Shown here: positions 3,601-53,219 of the stretch, piece by piece | Numbering within the stretch: position 1 is the first letter of the stretch | Layout of the letters: each line of letters opens with the position of its first letter | NCBI RefSeq assembly: GCF_008831285.2 | Contig: NC_045138.2 | Span: forward strand, 24,924,001 to 24,988,000 | DNA: 64,000 nucleotides | Direction: 5' to 3' | From: Nymphaea colorata | Lineage: Eukaryota | Made by a program: the position numbers and the translations under genes | Notes under the pieces: model-generated | The model's database searches: none | What the model was told of the DNA's origin: nothing | The model's input: the letters and a program-made list of their open reading frames with translations, nothing else

Positions 3601-4485
3601 ATGAGGGGAAGGCTATGTGGGCATTTAAAATCCGGAGACTTTCTTTGTCCTCGACCAAGAAAATGCCCTCGGTTTGAGGAAATCTGCTATTTTATGCCAG
3701 TAGATTCTCATTTCTCATGCAGGAGAGAGGGGTCGATCCTTATCTTGCAGGCGACTGCAACCGCGTATTTGACTTCTCCTGGATTAATCTTCTATAACCA
3801 TTCGAGGGAAAAAAAAAAAAGTCTGCGATTCATGAGTCATGACACCCTTCCCTTCTAAGTTCAGTATGCATGAGCGAGGAATCCTCCCTTTTTCTGCTTC
3901 TTCTTGGCTCCTTCCTGGCTTGAGAAGAACATATTGGTGGTGGTGCCCCTCTGTCCCTGAAAAGGCAGGGTCCCTCCGTCATCCCTCTTCTACGCACCAC
4001 CTTCAGATACTGACTTGATAGAACTTCCTTTTTAGCCAAAACATCTGATCACCATCTCAAGCATCAGCCCCCCACCATGGTAGGACTTTAGCTCTAATTC
4101 GGTTCCGTCTCTCACCTTTGGCTCTTGGTTTATTGTTTTACCACTGCTTAGATTTGGAACAGGGAAGGGAGGGCGAAGAACTCACAGAGATTTGGTGTAT
4201 ATTGAGGTAATACAATTCTCTTGCTAAGCGAATCAGAGACCACCTTTTCAGTGATCAGTTTTCCCAGTCAAACGCTAGAAGAAGCCTACTTTCCATCAAA
4301 GTCCTTATTAGGTTCCCTTGTTCAAATCTGGCTGCCTTCTTTGACACGGAAGATACCTTGGCTATCTTTCTTCAGAGTCCAGGATTCACTTCTTTCCTAC
4401 CAAATCCGATCTGGGTTCTCTTTTTTGCTTCCTTTCTGGCACTTGAGATTTGCTTTGTGGGGATTAAGAAGACTGGGTGTTGGAG

Positions 4486-8791
<4,306 letters not shown>

Positions 8792-11700
8792 TTTGAGGAT
8801 GTGCAGGTTGCTGGAGTTGTTGGAAATAAGATGCCTGAGTTGCTTTCCGCTTATCTTTTCCTGAAGATCACAATTGACTCAGTACTACACTCATGGGCAG
8901 CTTTGCTTGATGCAATCCAAGACATGGATATCCTGGTGTTGTTCCATTAGTCAAACATTTTTCATGTTATGGAGATTAAGCTGTGTAATCCTCTCGGTAT
9001 TGTACATCTGGATCTGAAGCAAGATGTTGCACTGGCAGTTTCAACGGTGCCTGTATTCAGAACATTCCTTTGTATTCTTTTTTGGCTGTTCGTTTTATTT
9101 GAATGGTGTGAATGAGTTTATGTCGTTGTATTCAACAGTTTGCTCGCTCAAATATTGCTCCGGCAGTTGAGACCTGGATGGCTGGACCAACTTGTGTGAT
9201 GCTTCAATATTTTTGTTTTTGGATTCCATGAATAGCATTTCCACGAACAAGCATTGAAAGCTATAAAGAAATCAATATCGAAGGACTTGGTAGTTTATTA
9301 TCTGCCATGTTCAGAATGGTCTAGTTCAGCAATTCTTGAGCTATCTGTTGCCCTTTTCTATGAAGCAAAGGAAGTTTCTCATGGAAAAATTCTTTCGTGT
9401 TGCCATACCTTGAAACAGCTGAAAGAAGAAGCACATTTCCCGTAAAATACGTTTGGTCTATGGAATTACTCTGTTCTTTGTGACTTTATATTCGAAGGTG
9501 CGTTTTTATTTTTTTCAAAATGCAACAGAAATCACCAAATTGTCTTGAACGCCTCGGACTTGAACACCTAGAGGTGCCTGTTTACCATGTCTTCTTCTGA
9601 GTGTCTGTCCATGTAGGACCCTTGCTTTATTACTCTATAAGAAAGTCTGCCTGAACATCAGGTGCTTGGAAACAACTTTGCTGAATGATGGATCCCTTTG
9701 CGGCAGGTGATTTTTCTCAAGGCATTCAACTTGAATGACATGAAGAATTCAATACCTGCAGCAAGGTTAGAACAGCACAATGGCGTTGTCAATTGTCAGA
9801 AGCGGAGATTGAAACGCTCGATGCCAACGCTGACAAATCAGTGAACTGTTTATCCATCTTCAAACCATCTCTAAATGTGGCTTCTTTCACTGCCAAGGAA
9901 GGTAAATGTGAATGCGGCATGCATATCAGACCTTCTATAAGCGGTTGGTCGCTGAGGGAGCCATCGATTCTGCAACCAAAACAAAAGAATAACCATGATA
10001 CTAGTAGTTGATTCGTATGGATCATTAAATGTAAGAAGCAATTTGGTTCTTAAGGTTTCAATTGTCTTTATGAGCTTCTGTCAGGGCCGTTGATGCTGAA
10101 ACCTTCGTAAAAATAGATTCACGGTTTTTTTTTTTGTCTGACAATTTTCGGTATTCACTAGAACTTTCACAAAATTCAGTTTAGAGTTTCTTTTTGTCCT
10201 ACGCAATTGGCATTTAACATTTGTTTATATTGTTAGATTTGTGAAAGCATTTCGCTCACGAATTGAAAGACCCAGAGAACAAGATAAGAGTGGGCAGCAA
10301 AGAACCAAACCACTTGAATCACAATGATCAGATCAACTCACATGTCGACAATTAAAGTTAACATATTAGAATGACGGACGATTAATAATATTCTGACGAG
10401 GAAATCGTTACCAGATATTTTACCGGTCCCAAATTTTACTGCCCAATGTTATGAGCAAAAAAAAAAAAAGACTAAACAATATTTATCATTTAAAAATTGA
10501 GACAACATGATAACTCCTCCTCTAGTCAGGAAATTCAGTAGCTCACTCCAAGAGTCCAAGTAAGAAACTTGTGTTCTGTTTGCATGTCATTAAAGGACGT
10601 CTGATAAGGAAAACATGATGTTTTTGCAATAGATATTTTTAAAATATTATATTTTTCTTTTAAAACCTTTTCAGTGTTTGGTCGTTCAATTTACGCATAA
10701 TCACAATATATTTCAAAAACAAACATTTCTAATCAAATGCTTTGTTTGAGGTCTAAGTGACGTTGTGGCCCCTTCTTTTGTCTACCCTTAATTCCGTTTG
10801 TAAAAAGAGTTGGCACCTACGAAATTCGAACTCACGACTGTTCAAGAGACAGCCTGACCGTTTCTAAATTGAAGTCGATGAGCCGGGAGAGTGGAGACGC
10901 GAGTGACGAACCACAAGCTGTGAAGATTGACCATCAAAGTCTAAACAGGGAAGAATCAGGTGCTATCCGAGTATTACAAACAAAAGTACGGGGACGTTAA
11001 TGAAAGATTGATGGTTGCGACTTGCGAAGAGGTGAAAAGGGAAGACCAAGAAGTCTCTGCATCTCTCGCTGTCTCTGATTCTCTCTCTGTAGGTAAGCAC
11101 GAGAAGATCCTCCGCCATGGATTAAATCGAGAGTGGTGTTCTGCAATAATCTACAAGGTGCTCTCTCTCTCTCTCTCTCTCTCGCTCCCCACACCCACCC
11201 AATCCCAACCCAACGATCACCTAAGCTGAATCATCTTTGAAGTCAACACCAACGTAGACCCTGTGGGTTTCGTTTAAATTAGAGCGGAGAAGCACACCGC
11301 AACAGTGTGGGTCCAATTTATGTTGGTCGGTTCTTTTCTTAGTTTGAATCATGTCCCATTAGACCTCTAAGATCGGCTGGATTTTCGGGAAGCAAATTGA
11401 GGAATCAGAAGAGGTAAAACTAGCTTTTCCCCTTAAGAAATCATAGGGAATTTGATTCTTTCCACGAGGAAAAAAGGAATTATGTTGAGAAGGGGATTTG
11501 GATTTCCCCGAATCTAACTAGGCCTACCTGCATTGTGGTATTGCAACAGAATGAATGAAAAAATTGAGCAGAATGGAGTCATGTTTAAGCATTTCTAGAA
11601 GGTTAACGAGATTCTGGGTCACTTGGTTGGGGTTCTGGGAGATAATTGCTTTTGCTTGGCTAGAAATTTTTAATTTGCACCCGACAGAAAGCGAATATGT

Positions 11701-12117
11701 TGTTCGTCGAGCATGAATTCTTAGATTTTGATTTTAGATGTGATTGTGCTTTATGAAGGACGGTTTATGATGCATAATGCTAGAAAAATAGAGAAACAGG
11801 ACGTGCAAAACAGGTTCCATGTAGCTGTGATGAGTCTTGGTGGCGATGTCGCTGATGTGCATTTATGTTTGAAGAACAATTTGATGCCATACATACCCGC
11901 ATGTGCCTAGTTCTACAAGTGAAACCTGAGTTTATGGTTTTCCTTATTTACAAAAAGTAGTGATGAACGATATGCTTTAGTGCTGCTATGTTGCTCAATG
12001 TATTTACATGCTGTGTCAGTTTTTTGGTTGAATGACTTCTAGACGCTTTCCTGCATGCTAACAGCGGAACTATTTCTTCGTTTATGACCTTCTCTAGGTT
12101 GTATCTGCAACTCAGGG

Positions 12118-13044
12118 ATGGAGGAGAACTGCTCCACCGGAAAGTCCATAGGAGCTTGTAACGAAAGTGAACCTGGTAAAAGTACAGTTCGTCATGGTGA
12201 TGCAGTGGACACCAGTATAACGCCTGAAGTGGGAATGCAGTTTGAAACACATGAAGCTGCAAGACTGTTTTACGATCAATATGCTAGACATAAAGGGTTC
12301 TCTACCAAAATAAAACGCTCGTGGAAGAGGGGACGTAGTGATGAGTTGTCTGCAATATTGTATTCATGTTCTAAAGCCGGTAGTAAACATGAGAACAAGA
12401 ACACTCAATTTGAAAGAGGGACTTCATTGACAGATTGCAAAGCAGAAATGAGAGTTAAGAGAATGGACACCATGAAGTGGAAAGTGACCGAAGTTGTACT
12501 TGATCACAATCACGAGCTCGTCCCTTCAAGCGTAGATCTATATAGACCCAACCGGTGCATAAGCTCTGGAGTCAGGAGGAAGTTAAAAAAGAGGCTTGTT
12601 TGTCAACCTCTGTCCACCCAGAATCACATGAACAACATCCCCAGTGAGATGAATAAACTTTTGGATATTCAACCTATTTCCTATTTACGAGAGGCAGAGG
12701 GCACGGTGTGCACACCTGCTGATATCAAGGAGTTACCTGGTTCGTACATCTACATCATTGACATGCCTGGACTTAAATCAGATGACATCAAGGTGCAGGT
12801 TGAGGATAACAATATTCTCAGTGTATGTGGGGAGAGGAAGAAGAACGAGAGGGAGGATCCAGAAGCCAAATTTATTAGAATCGAGCGGGTGGGGAAGTTC
12901 ATGAGGAGATTCACACTTCCTGCCAATGCTAATGTCGATTCCATCTCAGCCGTTTGTAGAGATGCTGTAGTCACTATAACAGTAGCCAAAATTCCTCCTC
13001 CTGAACCTAAAAGACCTAAGGTCATAGAGGTTAAGGTTGGCTGA
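12118..13044 (+). CDS. Single-exon 308-aa chimera: FAR1/FHY3-type DNA-binding (WRKY-GCM1-like zinc finger) domain plus cytosolic class II small heat-shock protein (alpha-crystallin/HSP20 domain)
   Basis: aa ~36-135 ([26 protein letters not shown]...YSCSKAG...[11 protein letters not shown]...[14 protein letters not shown]) is a FAR1 DNA-binding domain with C/C/H-N-H ligands. aa ~164-308 ([32 protein letters not shown]...GER...[10 protein letters not shown]...[18 protein letters not shown]) is a class II sHSP. The ORF is uninterrupted, and a plausible 3' splice site (ttctctag, ~12098) lies just upstream of the ATG. Confidence 0.88.
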
Positions 13045-16000
13045 AATTTTTCAGTTGTACTGTCTTGTTGTAGGGGTTCTATTTTTTGTGTCTCAACACT
13101 TCTTTTTTTCTTTTTCTTTTTTTTTCTTTCTCCTGGTCCTTAATGTTCTTCTCCTTCTTTGTAATGAAATTTTTAAGAAATGTAAGCTTTCTCCATTACA
13201 TCTGAATCTTGATTATTATTCTTGAGTTTGATTCTCAAATATTAGTTTGCACCCTCGTAATGACTGCGATTGAGTTACTCTCTTACGTTACTCCTTTTTA
13301 AAAGTCTCCGATAGCCTCTCTCACTTAGCACAGACACAAAGGATACGTCGTGGCTTCCAAGTTTATCAGGATGTAACAATAACTACTACTGACACACACC
13401 TTAGGTTACCTCATTAAAGAAACTGGAGTGTGAAGATAAAATTCACAAGCCATGATGAAAATATCGACAAAAATTGTTGAGGTATCAGCCATTTATAGTG
13501 ATGTGTCAAAATCTCATACGATCCAAAGCAGTTCTGACATGGATCCTGCCTTTTATAATGAAAGTGTTTTTATTTGGCTTTCTGAATATTGTTCTTTGAG
13601 CGCTACACTTATGATTTTGGTACTCCATCTAGCACTGTTAATGAACGAATCTTCATTCCTTTTTTTTTAACGTGGTGTTTAATCATCTAACATGAACAGA
13701 ACAATATGAGGAACAGAGGTTTGCGTGGTACCCAACAGTACTGAGGTATCACATTTAGTCGTCGTCCACTTTATGCTCCTTTTTTTGGAATACTATTCAC
13801 ATACAAAGTCCTTCCAGTCTTTCTGGTTCTTGTCTTGAGTCCTCTGGCTTTTGCACTTAGTTCATCTGAACATTGTCAGTGGCATTCTAACTAAGCTATC
13901 CTTTATCACACTCCCTAGACTCTGACTCAACCTCCAAAAAGGTCTCCCAACTGCTCATCTTTGTTAGTGTTATTGATGTTGAGCTCTACTTTGTTTCATT
14001 TTTTTTTTCTTGTTCAGATGGATGTAGACATGAAATTTTCTTTCAGCTTCAGTTGATTCAGTTTTAGTTCTGTTGCAACACGAAAAATGTGGAAATCGTT
14101 TAAGTATCTGCACAAAGGTTATGCAAATTGTGGCTTTCCTAAATTCCAATGGAAATAACTTTCGCTGTTTTTATCTTTGCAGCCTAGAATAGCTTTTTTC
14201 TATTTACCTGCACGGTACAATTGCGTATGCACTAAAATGACGAACTTACAGATGGAGACGAGGTAACCTTTAAGCAAATTAAATGAAAACATGTCTGAAA
14301 CGTGCAAGATTAGAAGCAAATTCATTCTCACTCCAGCAACTGCGAAATACTGTGTTGAATGTTGATAACTTGATATTAATTATTAAATTTTTAAAAACTG
14401 TGGTACCTTTTTTAAGATATTTCATACTCTGTGGAGGCAGTTGAAAACGCGGGAGAGCACGTTGAGATTGCCCTTCTTGCTCTGCTTCATAAAAGAAACA
14501 GCATGTTGAACAATGTTTACAGTGTCACACCATGCCCATCATCATAGTGTGACCCTGTCCATCATCATAATGTTTACAGTCACTCCACGTCCATCAACAT
14601 TAAGCATTCTTCGAAGAGTAAAAAGCAGCCCAAAAATGGAAATCTCAAAATTTCAATGGTACTTTCTGATGCAAACAGTTTTCTCTTTTCACTAGACTGG
14701 CTGGTGTTGAACAGATCCTTGCTAGTGTACGCGTCATATTTCTTCTCTTTTAAAAGACCAGCTGATTCTCAGCACTGTTACAAGTACATGCCAAGAGGCT
14801 GACGAAAACATGCAAACTATTGCGAGTTCTTTTAATACAATTTGCTCCTGCAAGGTTGGCGGCTTCGGTGAACAAATCTCTAAAGTTGCCATAAACAAAT
14901 CAGTTGTATTTTTTAAATAGCAACTCAAACACCTTCCATGACAACAACCACTCGATAATGCAGAGCCAGTCAGGGGGCAGTTGATGTATTTCTATTGATT
15001 ATTTCATCAGAACCTTGCTTTTGCTGCAATCAAGCTAAGATGTGTGAATGCCCGTTGAATTGAGAGCCACCCCCTTATGCCAGTTGAGATGTTTGGGTAT
15101 AAAATCTGCTTTGATGTGGATGTTCGTCCAGTTATTGACTCAACGCACCCTTAATTGTATCAACTGCAACCTCCGGTGGCTAATTTTCACGCCTATAAAG
15201 AAAATCAGATCCTTTGCTCTTTCATCAAGTTTTGAGACCACAACTTTTGGCCAGACAGCTGATTGGGCTGTTCTCCGAACAAGTAATCTGATGCAACGAG
15301 GAAGAAAACCATTGAGCATCTCTTCTGGCAATGTCCTATCATGCAGCACCTCTAGCAGTTCCTCGGGCATTCTCCTGCGATCGCTCCTCGGCCGCATTCA
15401 TCACTCAAGAAGTCCTCTTCGGGCTGGCATGCTGCCAATTTTCCAAGGTTGGCCGCTTACGGTGACAAATTTGGCTTTCTACCACCTGGTGGGAGGTTGG
15501 TTTTGTGCGCTTGTAACGACTTTTTTTTAATCGAGGCATTAGGGTGGACCCTCTGAGGCTTGCCAAGTGGATTTTATGTGATATTGCCTCTCTCATCAAT
15601 GGTCGTCAACTTGATGTGGACAGGGGTTTTGGGTTTATCACGTCTGCTTTGTAGTCATTTTGTAAGTTATTTCCTTCGCCTTCCTAACAGAAAAAAAAGT
15701 TAACACCTTTCTATATCCTCACATGGACACACACAGAGAGAACTTTGTTTAAACCCGATTAACTTCACGTTCGGTTTCGAAGAAATCTGGAATTAGGAAT
15801 TTTTCCCGTTATCTCAAGATTGCCACGTTTTTTTGGAGAAAAATTGGTGCATATAAAATAAATGCAAATGCCAGAATAACAATACAAGCTAAGAAAAGGG
15901 ACTTAGTTTGGAGATGTCCGAGAAAATGATACAATTTAAAAATTAAACATTCCCTGAAATTTTGACAATTCCCTCAATATCATACCAGCGATGATGGCCA

Positions 16001-16658
16001 AATCGTATTCTTTAGAGGAAATATGTGAATATTCTCTGCAACATGTCGTGATAGTATTTGGAGTCAACCTTCTCAACATTGCACCAGCCTAGATAATATA
16101 TTGACGAAACGATATATTTTCATAAACAGGTCAGAGCAGCAGCAAGTGCACAAATTTCGAGAACACGAATTTGTGTTCATTTTAGTTCAAAAGCCTAGAA
16201 GACTAGAACTAAGTACTAGAAAGAATACATCCAAGTACACAGACGCAACAAACAGCCAAACCCAGATGCATACACATACAGAGGCGAAGGCACAAGGATC
16301 CTTCACAAGATAAATAATAAAAAGCAAACGAGTAAACTGCCCGAAGAACGGAAAGCATGCAAATCATTAGCACAGCGATGTGCTTATAAGAAGTGGATGC
16401 ACGTATCTCAACTAAAGACTACACTGCCCCAGTCACCTGATTCTATCACAGCTAGGGAGAACGTAAAAGAAGTGAGTTAACTGACTAAATAAAAAACTCA
16501 CGCAGGAGGAATAAAAAGATCCAAGTCATAAAATATGACAAATATATTAAAAATTTGAATCAAATATCGGATATCTCAGAAGAGACAATGAATCAGATAT
16601 CACAATGAATTATGAAGCCAAACTATTTGACAACAAATAATGGATTACATGGAAAGAA

Positions 16659-45900: not shown

Positions 45901-48900
45901 AATATCATAAAAGACAGAATGGAAACTTTGAAAACTAAACTTTACCAAATAATCAAGAATAATTTCACATTGCTATGATGCCATGCCTTGCCTAGGTTAA
46001 GAATTTACAATGATTTAGCAGCTCAATCAACGATATTAATGTTTGGAAGAGGATTGATTTGCCTACTTGTGGTGCCACAATACGGTTATCTCCATCAAGG
46101 ATTATACATCTGTCTGAAACAAAATTTGCTGCAACATTCTTCCGCAGAGCATTCAAAGCATGAGGGTTCCATTCACATGCATAAACCAGTTTTGCACCAG
46201 CTCTAGTTGAGAAGCAAGTTGTCAGTAGTACCCAAAGCACGCAAAATTCCTTATAAATAAGGAAAAGTAGATAACTGAAATGATTGCAAAGAGAAAATGA
46301 CAACATGAAAGGCCATAATGTCAACAAACATGATGCTTACTTCACCAGGAAAGGCAGCACAAAATATCCAATTCCAGCAAACAAATCAACAATGATTTCA
46401 TTCCTGCAGTCTAACTTAGACATGCGAAGCTTTTCTGACAAATTTCCCCATGAAAACATACATTGTGTTGAATCAAAAGAATAGAATATTCCATTCTCAT
46501 GATGATCGACCCAGCCATTGGCACCCACCAGGATCTCTAAGGTACTATCTCTTGTTCCAGTTGCTGCAACTTTCCCCTGCATATCATTAGAAAGGATTGT
46601 AAAAATGGGATTTTTCAATTGCCTAAAATCTTAAGGTAGTGTTTGATGGGCAGGTATTTTACTGTAGCAGTGGAAACATATTTCAAATTTTCAAAACATT
46701 TCTTGTTTATCAAACATAGAATTTTTTTTTTACCGTTAACATGAAAACCGGAAACATATTTCCGGAAATATGTTTCCACCCATGTTTCCACCCGGAGGGG
46801 TGGAAACATATTTCCGGAATTTTTTTTGGAGCCGTTGGGCTCGATCGTGGAAGGAGGGGGGGAGGGAAGGAGGCGGACGTGAGGAGAGGGGAAGGAGGGA
46901 GGAGAAAGAGGGGAGGAGGAAAGGGGAAGAACGGAAGGAGGAAGGAGGAGGGAGGAGAAAGAGGGAAGGAAAGGGGAAGAACGGAAGGAGGAGAGGGGAA
47001 GGAGGGAGGAGGAAGAACGGAAGGAGGAGAGGGGAAGGAGGGAGGAGGAAGAGGGGAAGGAGGGATAGTGGAAGGAGGGAGGAGGAAAGGGGAAGGAGGG
47101 AAGCGAAAGAGGGGAGGAGGAAAGGGGAAGAACGGAGGGAGGAGGAAAGGGGAAGAACAGAGGGAGGAGAAAGAGGGGAAGAACAGAGGGAGGAGGAAAG
47201 GGGGAAGGAGGGAGGAGGAAGAGGGGATGAGGAAGAAAGGGAAGGAGGCAGAGGCCGAAGGAGGAGGAGGAGGAGGAGGGGAGGAGGAAAGGGGAAGGAG
47301 GGAGGAGGAAAGGAGGCGGAGGCGGAAGAAGGGAAGGAGGGAGGAGGAAGAAAGGGGCGGAGGCGGAAGAAGGGAAGGAGGGAGGAGGAAGAAAGGGGCG
47401 GAGGCGGAAGAAGGGAAGGAGGCCGCTTCTTTCCCATTTCCATCGATTCTTCCTTTCTTGCAATCAAACGCAGAAATTTAATTCCAGAAAAATAATTCTA
47501 AGTTATCAAACACAACACACATTTGAAAATCTAGAATTTTATTTCTAGAAAACCAATTCCAGAAACATATTTCTGGAAACTTGTTTCCAGAAATATGTTT
47601 CTGGCCATCAAACACTACCTAAATGAATTCCTAGCAATGCACCACAACACTAGAAGCTGGATGCACTTCCAAAAAAACCAGAAGCATTTGCTTCTCAGAT
47701 CATAATCTACATATAGTTTGAGAACATCATGTGTTAATTCCTTAACGACTCATCCAAACAAGTAACGACAAAAGGTAAGGTAAATTAAGTAATCAAGCGA
47801 AATAAAAACATCCAGCTGTATAACCTAATACATACAAGCATATATTTGTTTATGTTTCATTAGTGAAGAATCTGCCTAAATGCAGTCAAATTGAAAGATA
47901 AAACCATGAATCCAGTCTTTCTACTCATACAAGCTCCAGATTCTTGACCAAAATCAGTTCTGACAATTAAGCAGAAAGTGTTATTGCATGTGCTATTGCT
48001 TGTTCTGATACTGTCAATCAGGAATTCATATTCCCTGCAATACAAACAGATCGCAAGTGCACCTTCAGGCTCATATAGAACGAAAAGATACAACTTAGTG
48101 TTGAAAGACATTAGTAGAACCACGTCGACCATAGTCAGCAAATCATCATAGACAAGGTTACTACATAGACTTTCCTATGAAAGCAAAAAACTACACATGA
48201 ATGTGTATTGACATACTTCGGAAGTGTCTACTTCATTGCATAGTTATGCATAATATACATGAACAAAATTATAAACATACACAAACATATGTCTGTCAAT
48301 ATTGTTCTGTTGTGTTTCTATTTGTTTGTATATATGACTACGCAACAAGAGCAACTGACCACTATAATCCACAAAATCTTGCCTCTAAGGAAGGACAACA
48401 AAAGAGATCATATAGAAATAGAAACCTGACGAGCAAGGCGCACAGCACCTAGAGAACTTGCAACTATGGGCCAAAGCTCAGCACTAACAGAATCCCAGAT
48501 CTTGTGATTAAAAGCCAAGGATGGAAGTACAACTATATTACCAAGCCGCTCCCACCTGGATCACAATGTTTAGTTACGAGTTTTCTTGTCAGCTGGTATC
48601 AAGAACAAAACCAACTAAATCACGTATGTGAAAGTGTCCAAACCACAGCAAGAAAGATTTAGAAAGAAAATAAAAAGTGCACACCTACTTGGCAACTGTT
48701 CTAGAAGGTTTGTAGGCAAGCCTTTCTGGTGTATCAATGACATTACTGCTTCCCTCAGTATCTTCTGTGGGGACCTTGGTTGCCTTCTCATCAGCGCAAT
48801 GTCATCCTCTACCAAAGAAGCACCACAAGCTAGCAGAAGATTCTGCAGCTCAGGTAAAGAAGCCCCATCAAGTGAAAAACCCTTTGCCATACAGAAGGCC

Positions 48901-51900
48901 ATAGAATCACTGGCCTTTGGACTTTCAACCAAGTTATCTGAACAAGCAACCTTCTCCAAAAACCAGGTGTGACATTTTTCAGTAACTGGAAGGAATACAA
49001 TTTGTTCATCTTCAGTTTTGTAAACCTTCCTCCCAGTGTCCAACCATCCAATTTTTTTCACTATATCCTTCCCAAGTTTAGCATATCTTCTTTGAATCTG
49101 TAAAGCCCACTTTTTAGGTTTCATTTCAACTGTATCTTTCGCTATCCTTTGGTCATGGAATGCCCTTGGATTTCCATTAGTAGCATGTGCACATGCGTTA
49201 TAATGTAAATTCTCATCATCTGTCAATCCCTTAAGACCAGCAACAGCAGTGCCATTACCCACCTTTGTCTCTTCAGGGTTTGTCAGAGGCTTAACTGCTA
49301 CACTATCAGCATGTCTGTCAGAAGCCAAAGAAGTCAACAAGCAACAATCTACTTGCATTGGTTCATTGAATTTTGTTCCAAATGCATAACATGATGCTCC
49401 ACCACCAACCATAACTAGATCATCTCCCACAATGCTCACTGTACTACGAACAAGCATAGGATAATTAACAAACCCAGTTTCTACATGCTTCCATACATGA
49501 GTTTGCAGATCAAACAAAAAAATCCCTTGAAGCTGCTTTGTAACAGGACATCCACCAACTATTCCTAGATACCTTTTGTAGATGAACATTGAATGCGAGA
49601 ATCTTGCAGAAGGATTTCTTCCTGTAGTTTTCACTTTCTTCCAGAGACAAATGTTGGTATCAAAACTATAAAGATCTCCCAGTGCTGTTTCTCCATCATA
49701 TCCTCCAAACATAAATAATTGTGAACCTGCCGCCACCATTGAATGGGAATGCCGAGCACATGGTTGCTCCCCTTTGGTATCAATTTCAGTCCATTGCATT
49801 GTTTCTGTATCAAGGACATGCACGCACGGATAGATCAGTTCATGGTAAAGGCCACCATGCACATATACTTTTGTATCCACAACAGCAGCTGCATGGCGGT
49901 GCCTGAAAACACAACCCGATACCAAAAAGTAAACATCAACTCATATTTGTAACCACAACCTCATGCATATTGCACATACACAAATGTTGCTGTGATAAAC
50001 AACCACCAGTTATCACTACAAAAATATCAGGACCAGAAACATGCATATTGATATGAGCAACAAAGAAAAGAATATGTAGACCCACAGAACCATCCTTTAA
50101 TCAGTTTGTTTTTTCCACTGCAATAAACTATCTGCGAGATTAATGCAACCCATCTAACCTTGCAAATAGCATAAAGAAGCTCGGAACGCAATAGCAAAAC
50201 CATGTTTAATCAACATCAATTATATGACAGCAATGAAAATACACTTGTGAGGTAACAAATCACTTTTTCAACAAGAACCTAATCTAGTGGATCCAAGAGT
50301 TGGTAGCACGACTTCTGTATATAGAATTTATTCCCTTTCTACAAGAATCTGGGCTGGGCTCAGAGATTGCAGCCACTATATACTGACATTGGCTGACCTT
50401 TAATTATGCACTAACAACACTATCAGAGATGTTGGGCCCCATTAAGTGAAAATGCACCTGGGTACATGAATTAGATTGTCATGTAGTTACCCATTTCGGT
50501 AGAAAATATCAAGAGTACCATCATTTGTAATAAGCACCTTAATGCTTTCAACCATGAAATAGGACAGGTACCTCAATGAGGCCCTGTTCTGGAGATAACA
50601 GATGAGATCTTTTGGAACCTCCAACCGATACAAGCACAGTATCTTGTTTTTGCTTCCAAATAACAGTAAATCAGACATTAAGAGATCACCTCGGACCAAA
50701 AACACTTCCAGTACATGATAGAATCTCCCATCTACTCTCCTCTGTATGGAGGACCCATACATCACTAAAAATTTGTGTAGGGTCACCCCTCCCGCCAATG
50801 ACAAACATGTGGTTACCAATGACCGAAGATGTGTGTCCAATACGTGGAGAAGGAGGACCTACTGCATGAAGTACTTTTAACATGCCAGTTCTTGGGTCTA
50901 ACAGCAATGAGTCATTTTGCCTTGAATGTCTGCCTACGCCTCCAAAACCACCAAAGACCAAAATCCTTCTGCTGTCTGAGTCATTTAATAAGCTAGCTGA
51001 GTGACCCCAGCGGAAGAGTTTTCCCACAGGCAGGTCAAGTATCTTCATTTTGTTAGCTGAAACGGAGCACCTATCGGTGCTTGATGACCCTGCAGACAAA
51101 GTACCACAAAGTAAATTAGAAGATGAAAAGGTTCCCGACACAAAAGCACATCCATGATCCAAGATTTACGAAGGTTTGACTCCCACCCTGAGGGGAAAAA
51201 GAAGGGGGCATCATAGTTTGCAAGGACTAGAAAAAAGATAGTTTTTTATAATGGCAAGCTCCTTACTTAGTTCCCTTAGATCTGACGATAAAACGACAAA
51301 CCTTATTGAACTGGTAAATTCTAAAATCATGAACCACTTCCTAGTGTGAAACGACCAAAGCTAAAGGATAAAGAAGCTAAGAGAGAGAAAAAGACCATAT
51401 TATAATAACTAGAAAAACATCTAGACGCTTGCCCTGGCGGCTAAGAAGCTGGACCAAGATCTAGTAAATCCTAGGCATATGTTGGCTTGAATCACGCAAT
51501 TATTGGACATGAGTGATAAGGCTGGACAACCTCCTTTAGTGGAATTTCATGTGGATCATTAACCAGTCATACTTACATGATTTGAATTCTTTGTTGTCAT
51601 GGTTGTCGTCAGAGTTACCCTTTTCATGGTGTAGACTTTGGACACCACGATGTATGGGGCATCCTGTTCGGCTGCAGCTGCACTTGATAGGGACTTGAGT
51701 TGTCTTGCCTCGAGATCCAAAACATTTCCTTCTTCCATGCATTCTGTCTGTTTATCATCATTTCCCAATGGGCTTACATCAGCCGGACCCTGTCGCACAT
51801 CAAATTATATTGCACCATCAAGACTACTACAAGTAGGTCAAATGTAATAGCTAGGATCGTACGTAGAGATGCACTATAACGCCGACAGGTTCACATGTGA

Positions 51901-53219
51901 ATGCCACGAGTATCAGCCTTACCTAGAAAAAGAGAACAGGAAACCGAAAAGGCCACCTAAATGCTGGGATAGCGCGTAGAAGGTTCTACATGGTAAAATG
52001 TTTTATCTCCTAGAATCACATTTTGATTTGATGCATGTGTTCAAATAATGCAACAAGTAAATTTATAGACCAGGCGTTCAACTTGCGCCAGATGAATGTA
52101 CATGTATAACAAGTTAATCTTCTACAGTGTAGTTAAGACTACACTTCATACGCACGGGAGGAAGACCAACCTAGGAGAAGCCCCGTACAAGCGCATATAG
52201 GAATCCTTCTTAGCTTATGCAAAATAAGAATTTCTACGTGCCAAGCACGAAGAAATCATATGTTTCCACGTTGTTCCAAATTTAAGCATGAATATTTCGC
52301 CTGAAAATAATGATTTAAGACTTAGAAGTACGATTACCGTCCGCATGAATGTACACATTTGTCAATCAGAAAATATCAATTCAAGTTCAGCCACCAACCA
52401 CCTATTCGGAGAATGACATTGTGCAACAACCATGTCGGAAGACTCGGAAATAATAAACAAGAGAGCATGCAGTAATCTGAGCCCCAAACCTACCTTGGAG
52501 GCCGTGAACAGGCCAAGGAAAGCATCCGTCCGCTTCCTGTTGGCAGCCATCTTCTCATTGGCAATCCCGACCAGGTATCTAACGTACTCGGGCGAGACCA
52601 TCATCCTCCCCATCTCCCCCAAGGGCACCTCTAGCCGTATCGAACACCGAATCGCCACCATGATCCTCTTGCTCACGCTGCTTATCCCTACAGTCAAAGC
52701 ACCCGACAAAAATTCAACACCCAACTGCCGAAAAAATTCGACAACCAGCAAAGGAGGAATCAAGAAGCAGCAGTAATAAACTCAACCCGACTCTCTGAAA
52801 CCGCAAGAAATGGCCATGGCAACCAGAGAATGAGCAGAGGTAACGTCGATACAGTCGACCGCAAGAATGAAAGGCTCGAAGCGAAAGACCATGGTGTCGT
52901 GACTGTCATCGGAAGAGGAAGGTGGGTTGAATAGCAGGCTGGAGACGGTCTCCGGGTCAGCGAACTCATGGGTAATGAAAACCCAATCTCCTGCCTTCTT
53001 CTTCTTCTTATTCTTGTGGCTGCTCTGGTCGTTAGGGGCGGCGTGGGAGAGGATGGAGATCCTTCCCGAGCAGGAGCTAGTGGTGAAGTAGGAAGGATGG
53101 GCGTTGATGGCGTCGAGGAGTGGGATTATGGGCACGTCGAGTGAGCCCTTTGGGGATTTGTCCATTCCCTCCCTCGCCAAGGCAGACAGAGCCATCGACT
53201 TCCTCTTTGCGAACTCCAT
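42907..53219 (-). CDS. tRNA wybutosine-synthesizing protein 2/3/4 (TYW3 methyltransferase + Kelch repeats + TYW2/Trm12-like SAM domain), ~11 exons, ~1090 aa
   Basis: Exons 53219-52787, 52687-52494, 51789-~51564 (donor uncertain), 51089-50690, 49902-48685, 48555-48426, 46576-46341, 46202-46067, 44413-44337, 43460-43354 and 43013-42907. TYW3 motifs DKSPKGSLD and YFTTSSCSGRIS; Kelch repeats (RWGHSA, PRIGHTS, PRHRHAA, ARHSHSM, FGGYDG); SAM-binding VDLFAGIGYF; also ADRVCLGLLP, LHVHGNV and ERVKWYAPHIRHLVAD. Confidence 0.93.
44869..45224. mobile_element. hAT-like non-autonomous element in a TYW intron
   Basis: Termini CAATGTCTCA and TGTGACATAG form an 8/10 inverted match. 8-bp target duplication GTCCGGAA/GTCCAGAA; CCGTAC subrepeats. 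Confidence 0.7.
45451..45855. repeat. Intronic tandem duplication of a ~180-bp unit with a nested 44-bp duplication
   Basis: Units start at 45451 and 45674 (ACCAAATCTAGTGCCATTCTT...). The first unit carries an extra copy of GCATGACCAAATAAGCAAGACAnGTGTATGTTTCATTTTTGGAA (45586-45629 and 45630-45673). Confidence 0.9.
46635..47619. mobile_element. PIF/Harbinger (Tourist-like) non-autonomous element carrying a long purine-rich tract
   Basis: Perfect 15-bp TIRs GGTAGTGTTTGATGG / CCATCAAACACTACC flanked by TAA on both sides (46632-46634 and 47620-47622). Internal GGAAACATATTTCC subrepeats; ~570-bp G/A tract at 46850-47420. Confidence 0.88.

Follow-up and report, generated by a model that had tools for sequence, protein, structure and literature searches.

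An in-frame fusion of a FAR1 zinc finger with a remodelled class II small heat-shock protein in water lilies

The closest described systems to the gene reported here come from two sides. On the DNA-binding side, the FRF proteins have FAR1 as their sole domain, and with it FRF1 binds DNA at the STM promoter; the FRFs may compete with FRS proteins, for which the MULE core and the SWIM domain are needed for activation (PMC6000157, in the portion of the paper available), and the domain layout of the FRS family is confirmed by the accessible part of PMC12112247. On the chaperone side, ARID3 and ARID4 self-interact in planta, which the available part of the source tentatively attributes to their alpha-crystallin domain (ACD) (PMC12071340), and ACD15 and ACD21 drive higher-order assemblies of MBD5 and MBD6 on chromatin (PMC10651127, again from part of the text). 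A DNA-binding domain combined with an ACD is nothing new for plants, which have ARID2/3/4 and LjSIP1.

The locus lies in a window of 64,000 nucleotides of Nymphaea colorata (GCF_008831285.2, contig NC_045138.2, positions 24,924,001 to 24,988,000, forward strand), with a spliced CDPK gene as its upstream and a PPR gene as its downstream neighbour. On the plus strand, window positions 12118-13044 translate into one ORF of 308 aa with zero internal stops (34.8 kDa, pI 9.0), which is represented by an RNA contig and by the orthologous records P0038, P0039 and P0040. That this stop-free ORF joins a FAR1 domain in frame to a small heat-shock protein (sHSP), as had been read from the letters alone, is confirmed by Pfam, with both domains far over their cut-offs: FAR1 matches aa 51-136 (E 1.5e-21, 77 bits against a cut-off of 28.1) and HSP20 matches aa 202-306 (E 8.4e-21, far over the curated cut-off). 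Neither the MULE core nor the SWIM finger gave a Pfam match at E 0.1 in the 308-aa ORF, and Pfam matched no ARID domain in the fusion, the resemblance to ARID-ACD proteins being architectural only.

From its 5' end the coding sequence can be divided into five parts behind a short N-terminal tail. The FAR1 C2H2 zinc finger occupies 12223-12525 (aa 36-136; Pfam PF03101; pLDDT about 90 in the core), with the metal ligands C84, C107, H130 and H132 all in place at the positions given by the earlier reading, which had also placed the C-terminal IEV correctly. It is followed at 12526-12594 (aa 137-159) by a segment that aligns with FYRSHK..RKKLEL-type FRS segments and includes RRKLKKR at aa 153-159. 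This motif had been described as a basic linker; the position stands, while by alignment it is FRS sequence inherited from behind the zinc finger, and the basic segment is a possible nuclear localisation signal. Since the FRS-type segment runs to about aa 159, the junction between the FRS and sHSP parts lies near nt 12595. The class II homology sets in at about aa 160, where LVCQPLST faces LVMEQPLFST of the Amborella protein P0007, and not at aa 186; the description of the sHSP as whole with a diverged N-terminal arm holds. The arm spans 12595-12717 (aa 160-200), has lost the start Met and has its DxKAMA motif replaced, and is modelled with low pLDDT. The ACD spans 12718-12990 (aa 201-291), matches the 5ds1 sequence, and carries a one-residue deletion after E256 together with G283A, L285V, V287I and F212Y. 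The C-terminal extension at 12991-13041 bears the I/V-x-I/V motif, which is IEV at aa 303-305 and VEI in Victoria. The sHSP coding sequence is therefore whole (N-arm, ACD and tail) except for its first few residues, including the start codon.

Eight of the 24 listed sequencing runs were aligned onto the locus. In raw RNA the summed depth over 12073-12423 is about 11 in run X19 and about 12 in run X23, and over the bin that holds the junction (12424-12774) about 11 and about 8, respectively. A single contig of run X1, from 12096 to 13188, covers the whole ORF with 0 other letters and 1 gap, and run X24 has reads in every ORF bin. Transcripts across the junction, which were called for when the fusion was proposed, are thus found. 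In X19 the fusion reaches a depth of about 10, compared with about 200 for the adjoining CDPK. One contig of run X5, from a further organism (B), extends from 11214 to 13095, and neither of its two gaps falls in the ORF. Over 904 intron bases it shows 34 listed differences, as compared to at most 21 in the 978 following bases (Fisher p 0.04), a comparison in which 40 of 109 difference rows were visible and the 21 was derived from totals. Organism B is possibly a species already among the protein records and is not counted as independent. Its contig keeps the leader intron at a depth of 65, which may reflect a retained intron or else DNA in the run. At 12844 a contig of organism E lacks 3 bases, which leaves the frame intact. 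We also considered a separate short transcript of the sHSP part, given the higher depth of X24 in the 3' half of the gene (70 reads in total); the same is not seen in X19 or X23, the gene has no flagged start site, and the idea, though conceivable, is unsupported.

The gene had been called intronless, which is correct for the coding part only. No splice joint was found inside the ORF in runs X19, X23 and X24, the CDPK neighbour accounting for all 8 listed joints (GT-AG) of X19 and X23, so the coding part is unspliced, but the whole gene is not intronless. A 5' leader exon at 11021-11157 (ends approximate) is indicated by a contig of run X7 (11021-11152), by X24 depth over 11068-11151 and by a GT at 11158. 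The putative GT..AG leader intron would then extend over 11158-12097, where the RNA depth of X19 and X23 drops to about 1 or less compared with about 10 across the ORF; contig 6 of X1 begins at 12096 with 26 extra letters unaligned. The joint itself is unlisted, and the repeat at 11153-11213 was skipped in joint calling. The leader has two candidate donors, after 11092 and after 11157. An ATG at 11011 used with the former gives the 342-aa RefSeq isoform P0039, which is 34 aa longer, and with the latter a three-codon upstream ORF would start at 11117 in the leader exon. The 3' UTR reaches from 13045 to about 13188, where the X1 contig ends, and a contig of run X11 ends at 13193.

The same fusion is on record for Nymphaea colorata, N. 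thermarum and Victoria cruziana. The 90% cluster has 5 members: the query, an N. colorata CDPK that serves as representative, the N. colorata RefSeq isoform (342 aa, named 'FRS6-like' with the sHSP unmentioned), a Victoria cruziana protein of 308 aa and an N. thermarum model of 944 aa, and in the last three records the FAR1 and HSP20 Pfam domains are both present. The N. thermarum record (KAF3796762.1, P0040) merges the upstream CDPK (window 4000-9219) with the fusion gene. This is an annotation error, since the RNA depth between the two genes is zero or nearly so over 9265-11019, and it probably explains why a CDPK represents the cluster and hides the fusion from representative-based searches. 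Among 187 proteins checked, both halves are matched by only 4 water-lily fusion sequences; 52 proteins match the FAR1 half alone and 130 the sHSP half alone. One of the protein searches spanned 169-539 aa, and another was confined to the 150 best-ranking representatives and missed the known fusion members; relatives can hide inside the clusters of such a search. The ESM Atlas gave no usable match for the fusion, and a word-index search using aa 25-180 gave a score to 0 of 35 candidates. In the search confined to 150 representatives the top match, P0041, proved to be a doubled sHSP and not a FAR1 fusion. Single records from scattered plants combine a class II sHSP with WRKY, PGG or other domains (P0026, P0025, P0028 and P0027); all four are alone in their clusters and are probably merged gene models. 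The claim that the domain pairing is uncharacterised agrees with this distribution and with the openly accessible main texts searched, in which we found no FAR1-HSP20 fusion. The accessible part of a review found in this way describes no FAR1-alpha-crystallin fusion, and neither FAR1 nor heat shock occurs in the main text of the Victoria and Euryale genome papers (including PMC12177460). The FAR1-sHSP architecture is real and conserved, apparently undescribed, and so far found only in water lilies.

Comparison with Victoria allows us to ask which parts have been kept. The Victoria protein differs from that of N. colorata at 30 of 308 residues with zero gaps, and the differences are spread unevenly: 4/101 in the finger, 2/23 in the basic segment, 6/91 in the ACD, 3/17 (all conservative) in the tail, 9/41 in the N-arm and 6/35 in the N-terminal tail. 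Taken together, the N-terminal tail and the N-arm (15/76) differ more than the finger and the ACD (Fisher p 0.0007), with the finger the best conserved part (96% to Victoria) and the N-arm the least. The basic residues of the RRKLKKR region are identical in all three water-lily proteins. Conservative changes make up 19 of the 30, where 32-35% would be expected for random single-base changes (p 0.002). As a neutral reference we borrowed the Ks of 0.17 at which the Euryale triplication is placed, about 17 million years ago and after the split from N. colorata, Victoria being grouped with Euryale (PMC9314984, in the part available); this value is used as an inferred lower bound of the neutral distance between N. 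colorata and Victoria. Simulated neutrally to a divergence of 0.17, the protein gathered 95 +/- 8 differences, and 99% of the 1500 runs acquired a stop. The figure falls to 33 differences at 0.05, so the conclusion of constraint hinges on the Ks bound. The protein differences combined with this bound would imply a dN/dS of about 0.27 or less. Given 30 differences compared with about 95 expected, and the shared junction, the fusion is neither a mis-join nor drifting DNA. The mis-join at about 12600 that had been named as a risk is contradicted by the records of three species sharing the junction. None of the four outcomes named beforehand as refuting the fusion arose in the analyses made.

The FAR1 half retains the features that define its family but also some changes of its own. 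The four ligands do not vary in 97 of 97 further FAR1 domains, and 18 of the 22 family-conserved columns are kept in the fusion. The changes in the remaining 4 columns include R64K and R104L, with leucine at the latter position in 0 of the 97 other domains (14 redundant records left out); G106D is another change of the finger. R104L and R64K may alter or weaken DNA binding. The finger has a pI of 9.9, and its nearest FAR1 relatives share about 31-42% identity with it, at a distance of 1.5 changes per site. In a tree of 100 FAR1 domains over 133 columns, a set without the Arabidopsis FRFs, the fusion sits on a long stem, and no parent FRS gene was identified among the FAR1-domain search matches and in the tree. 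The predicted finger matches the Aft2-DNA structure 4lmg with a middling Z of 7.6 (rmsd 2.4, 74 aligned); Aft2 is of the WRKY-GCM1 kind. Among the other FAR1 proteins, P0042, P0044 and P0062 have three matched zinc-finger stretches, P0042 with no MULE or SWIM match, and represent another route to multivalency.

The sHSP half can be assigned to its class. Its best PDB sequence match is the core of the class II pea HSP17.7 (5ds1, E 9.8e-31, compared with 2.7e-20 for class I), the alignment to class II is collinear over about 149 aa, and in trees it is nested among seed-plant class II proteins. The named best matches are all plant class II or unnamed sHSPs, except for one Xanthomonas record that looks mislabelled. 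We compared it with a canonical set made of the best 120 of 708 short sHSP matches, in which 96 columns are conserved at 85% or more, and the fusion differs at 25 of these 96. At D192E, A195G, A197V, F212Y, the arginine deleted after E256, G283A and V287I all 120 canonical proteins agree and none has the fusion state. The motifs DxKAMA, ERxVGK and (D/N)GVL, found in 110, 117 and 119 of the 120, are absent in all three fusions, whereas the C-terminal I/V-x-I/V is kept in all three (118 of 120 canonical), as is the equivalent of R263 in the fusion ACD. On average the sHSP half is 56% identical to the canonical set, compared with at least 69% for any canonical member. The sHSP half, judged by these residues, is not a working-type class II copy. 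The three fusions form one clade (100/100), with a stem branch of 0.59 (52 rows) or 0.48 (26 rows) changes per site compared with a median end branch of about 0.06. The sHSP half was remodelled before the Nymphaea-Victoria split, after which both domains stayed conserved. This pattern, rapid change first and conservation afterwards, would be predicted by a shift of function. The N-arm hydrophobicity of 0.31-0.33 (canonical median 0.28) is in the canonical range, so client binding is still conceivable. In plant sHSPs the strand-swapped dimer segment lies just before the site of the deletion after E256; this deletion and G283A, which falls in the most conserved sHSP motif, could impair assembly. 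A G-to-A change in the G-x-L motif is reported to abolish chaperone activity while keeping oligomers, a report that carries no weight in the reading given here.

In AlphaFold models the two domains fold separately and are connected by a stretch of low confidence (pTM 0.45; pLDDT below 50 at aa 136-174 and 181-196). The ACD model superposes on wheat HSP16.9 (1gme; Z 14.2, rmsd 3.3, 98 aligned) and on pea HSP17.7 (5ds1; Z 12.4, rmsd 2.2, 91 aligned).

The simplest history would be that an intronless copy of a class II sHSP landed downstream of an FRS-type zinc finger and in frame with it. AU tests on the sHSP donor rejected none of three groupings (p 0.34-0.44), and the canonical class II genes of N. 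colorata, three in number, sit on another contig than the fusion. An old, decayed Pack-MULE or Mutator element is a possible origin; the search for terminal inverted repeats around the gene (9200-16600) found none, the longest arms being 28 nt at 71%. Elsewhere in the window, a long purine-rich low-complexity repeat at 46736-47495 has open frames on both strands and lies among the exons of the minus-strand gene 48615-53219, presumably kelch/TYW-like. The proposal that the fusion is heat responsive found no support. Heat-shock elements have 3 loose matches in 9500-13100, which is no excess upstream of the gene when compared to the whole-window background of 0.5 per kb, and residues invariant in working class II sHSPs are lost.

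We favour, with moderate confidence, a nuclear, DNA-binding, FRF-like protein that would self-assemble through its remodelled class II sHSP/ACD in the way of the ARID-ACD proteins. The basic segment would provide nuclear import and the zinc finger DNA binding, while the ACD would form dimers that the I/V-x-I/V tail could link into larger assemblies. What makes oligomerisation through the sHSP half plausible is that this half retains its fold, the equivalent of R263 and the I/V-x-I/V motif, and that the ARID-ACD proteins offer a precedent. Such assemblies might show several fingers at once or recruit partners. As the MULE and SWIM parts needed for FHY3 activation are absent, the protein's role would be that of a competitor, repressor or scaffold and not of an activator, and it would be expressed from an FRS-type promoter rather than as a heat-induced chaperone.

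Other readings use the same two domains differently. The protein could be a regulator switched by heat or proteotoxicity, in which changes of the sHSP assembly or co-assembly with class II sHSPs toggle DNA binding. The retention of a whole class II sHSP with arm, ACD and tail and the conservation of both halves speak for such a switch, and the canonical class II genes that persist in N. colorata are possible partners. However, motifs of 110-119 of the 120 canonical proteins are missing in all three fusions, there is no excess of heat-shock elements upstream, and the transcript depth is low beside the CDPK in RNA of unrecorded growth conditions, which makes us regard the switch as unlikely. More specifically, if the class II module still swapped subunits among its own copies or with class II sHSPs induced by heat, then heat or unfolded protein could alter the number of fingers on DNA, an idea that we find doubtful; if true, the heat switch would be an HSF-independent stress sensor made from a transposase finger and a chaperone. 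Alternatively, FAR1 could be merely an anchor or import signal for a chaperone that holds unfolding nuclear proteins, on chromatin or elsewhere in the nucleus. A full-length sHSP with canonical N-arm hydrophobicity and a basic stretch identical in 3 of 3 proteins would fit this. Holdases act in near-stoichiometric amounts, and the depth of about 10 compared with about 200 for the CDPK in X19 therefore counts against it, as do an N-arm that is the least conserved part and the loss of invariant class II residues; we consider it improbable.

The question may also be turned to the finger, which could have lost specific sequence reading and left an adaptor that enters chromatin complexes through partners, like ACD15/21 or IDM2. 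R104L, R64K and G106D, the distance to the nearest FAR1 relatives (about 31-42% identity, 1.5 changes per site) and the existence of known ACD adaptors make this worth considering, but four intact ligands, 18 of 22 conserved columns, a pI of 9.9 and the best conservation in the protein (96% to Victoria) count against a finger that no longer reads a particular sequence, and we give the adaptor only a small chance. Finally, annotation errors do occur at this locus, as the N. thermarum record mis-merged with the CDPK illustrates, so that an artefact of assembly or annotation, or a young chimera without function, has to be weighed too. The junction is common to records of three species including another genus, reads cover it together with contigs of two further organisms, and the substitution pattern shows constraint, leaving this explanation barely credible.

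Plants use ACDs on chromatin in ARID2/3/4, ACD15/21 and IDM2, and in the fusion the parent class of the ACD is recognisable residue by residue. Its changed positions can be enumerated and the same species still has canonical paralogues, so one can test directly which of the changes would convert a holdase to an assembly module, and whether any temperature dependence is left. The gene further offers a clear example of how a domesticated transposase domain was built into a new gene, in an angiosperm lineage that diverged early, and it has been hidden by its 'FRS6-like' annotation and by clustering under a CDPK.

By its defining features the fusion is not a canonical class II sHSP, an FRS or an FRF. 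It has the fold, tail motif and collinearity of the cytosolic class II sHSPs (pea HSP17.7, the 17.1 kDa proteins of Amborella and Nymphaea), but where these are stand-alone proteins of 17-18 kDa it is a fusion of 34.8 kDa that has lost the sHSP start codon and changed 25 of 96 conserved columns. Like FRF1-4 it has a FAR1 domain with four intact ligands and no MULE or SWIM, whereas it carries an additional HSP20 domain where the FRFs have the FAR1 domain only. From FRS, FHY3 and FAR1 it differs in lacking the MULE core and SWIM and in R104L, which is in none of 97 other domains. With the ARID-ACD proteins (Arabidopsis ARID2/3/4 of the PEAT complexes and Lotus SIP1) it shares a DNA-binding domain at the N-terminus and an ACD at the C-terminus, but it uses a FAR1 finger of MULE origin instead of an ARID, its partner is a recognisable whole class II sHSP (56% mean identity), and it is so far known from water lilies only. 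In the systems of ACD15/ACD21 with MBD5/6 (PMC10651127) and IDM2 with MBD7 and HDP1/2 (PMC12228296), as far as the available parts of both papers describe them, ACDs likewise assemble chromatin-binding proteins, and the HDP1/2 found beside IDM2 are Harbinger-derived, domesticated transposon proteins (PMC12228296, same part). There, however, the ACD sits in one protein and the DNA reader in another, whereas the fusion has them in one chain and shows how a stress chaperone may become a chromatin module.
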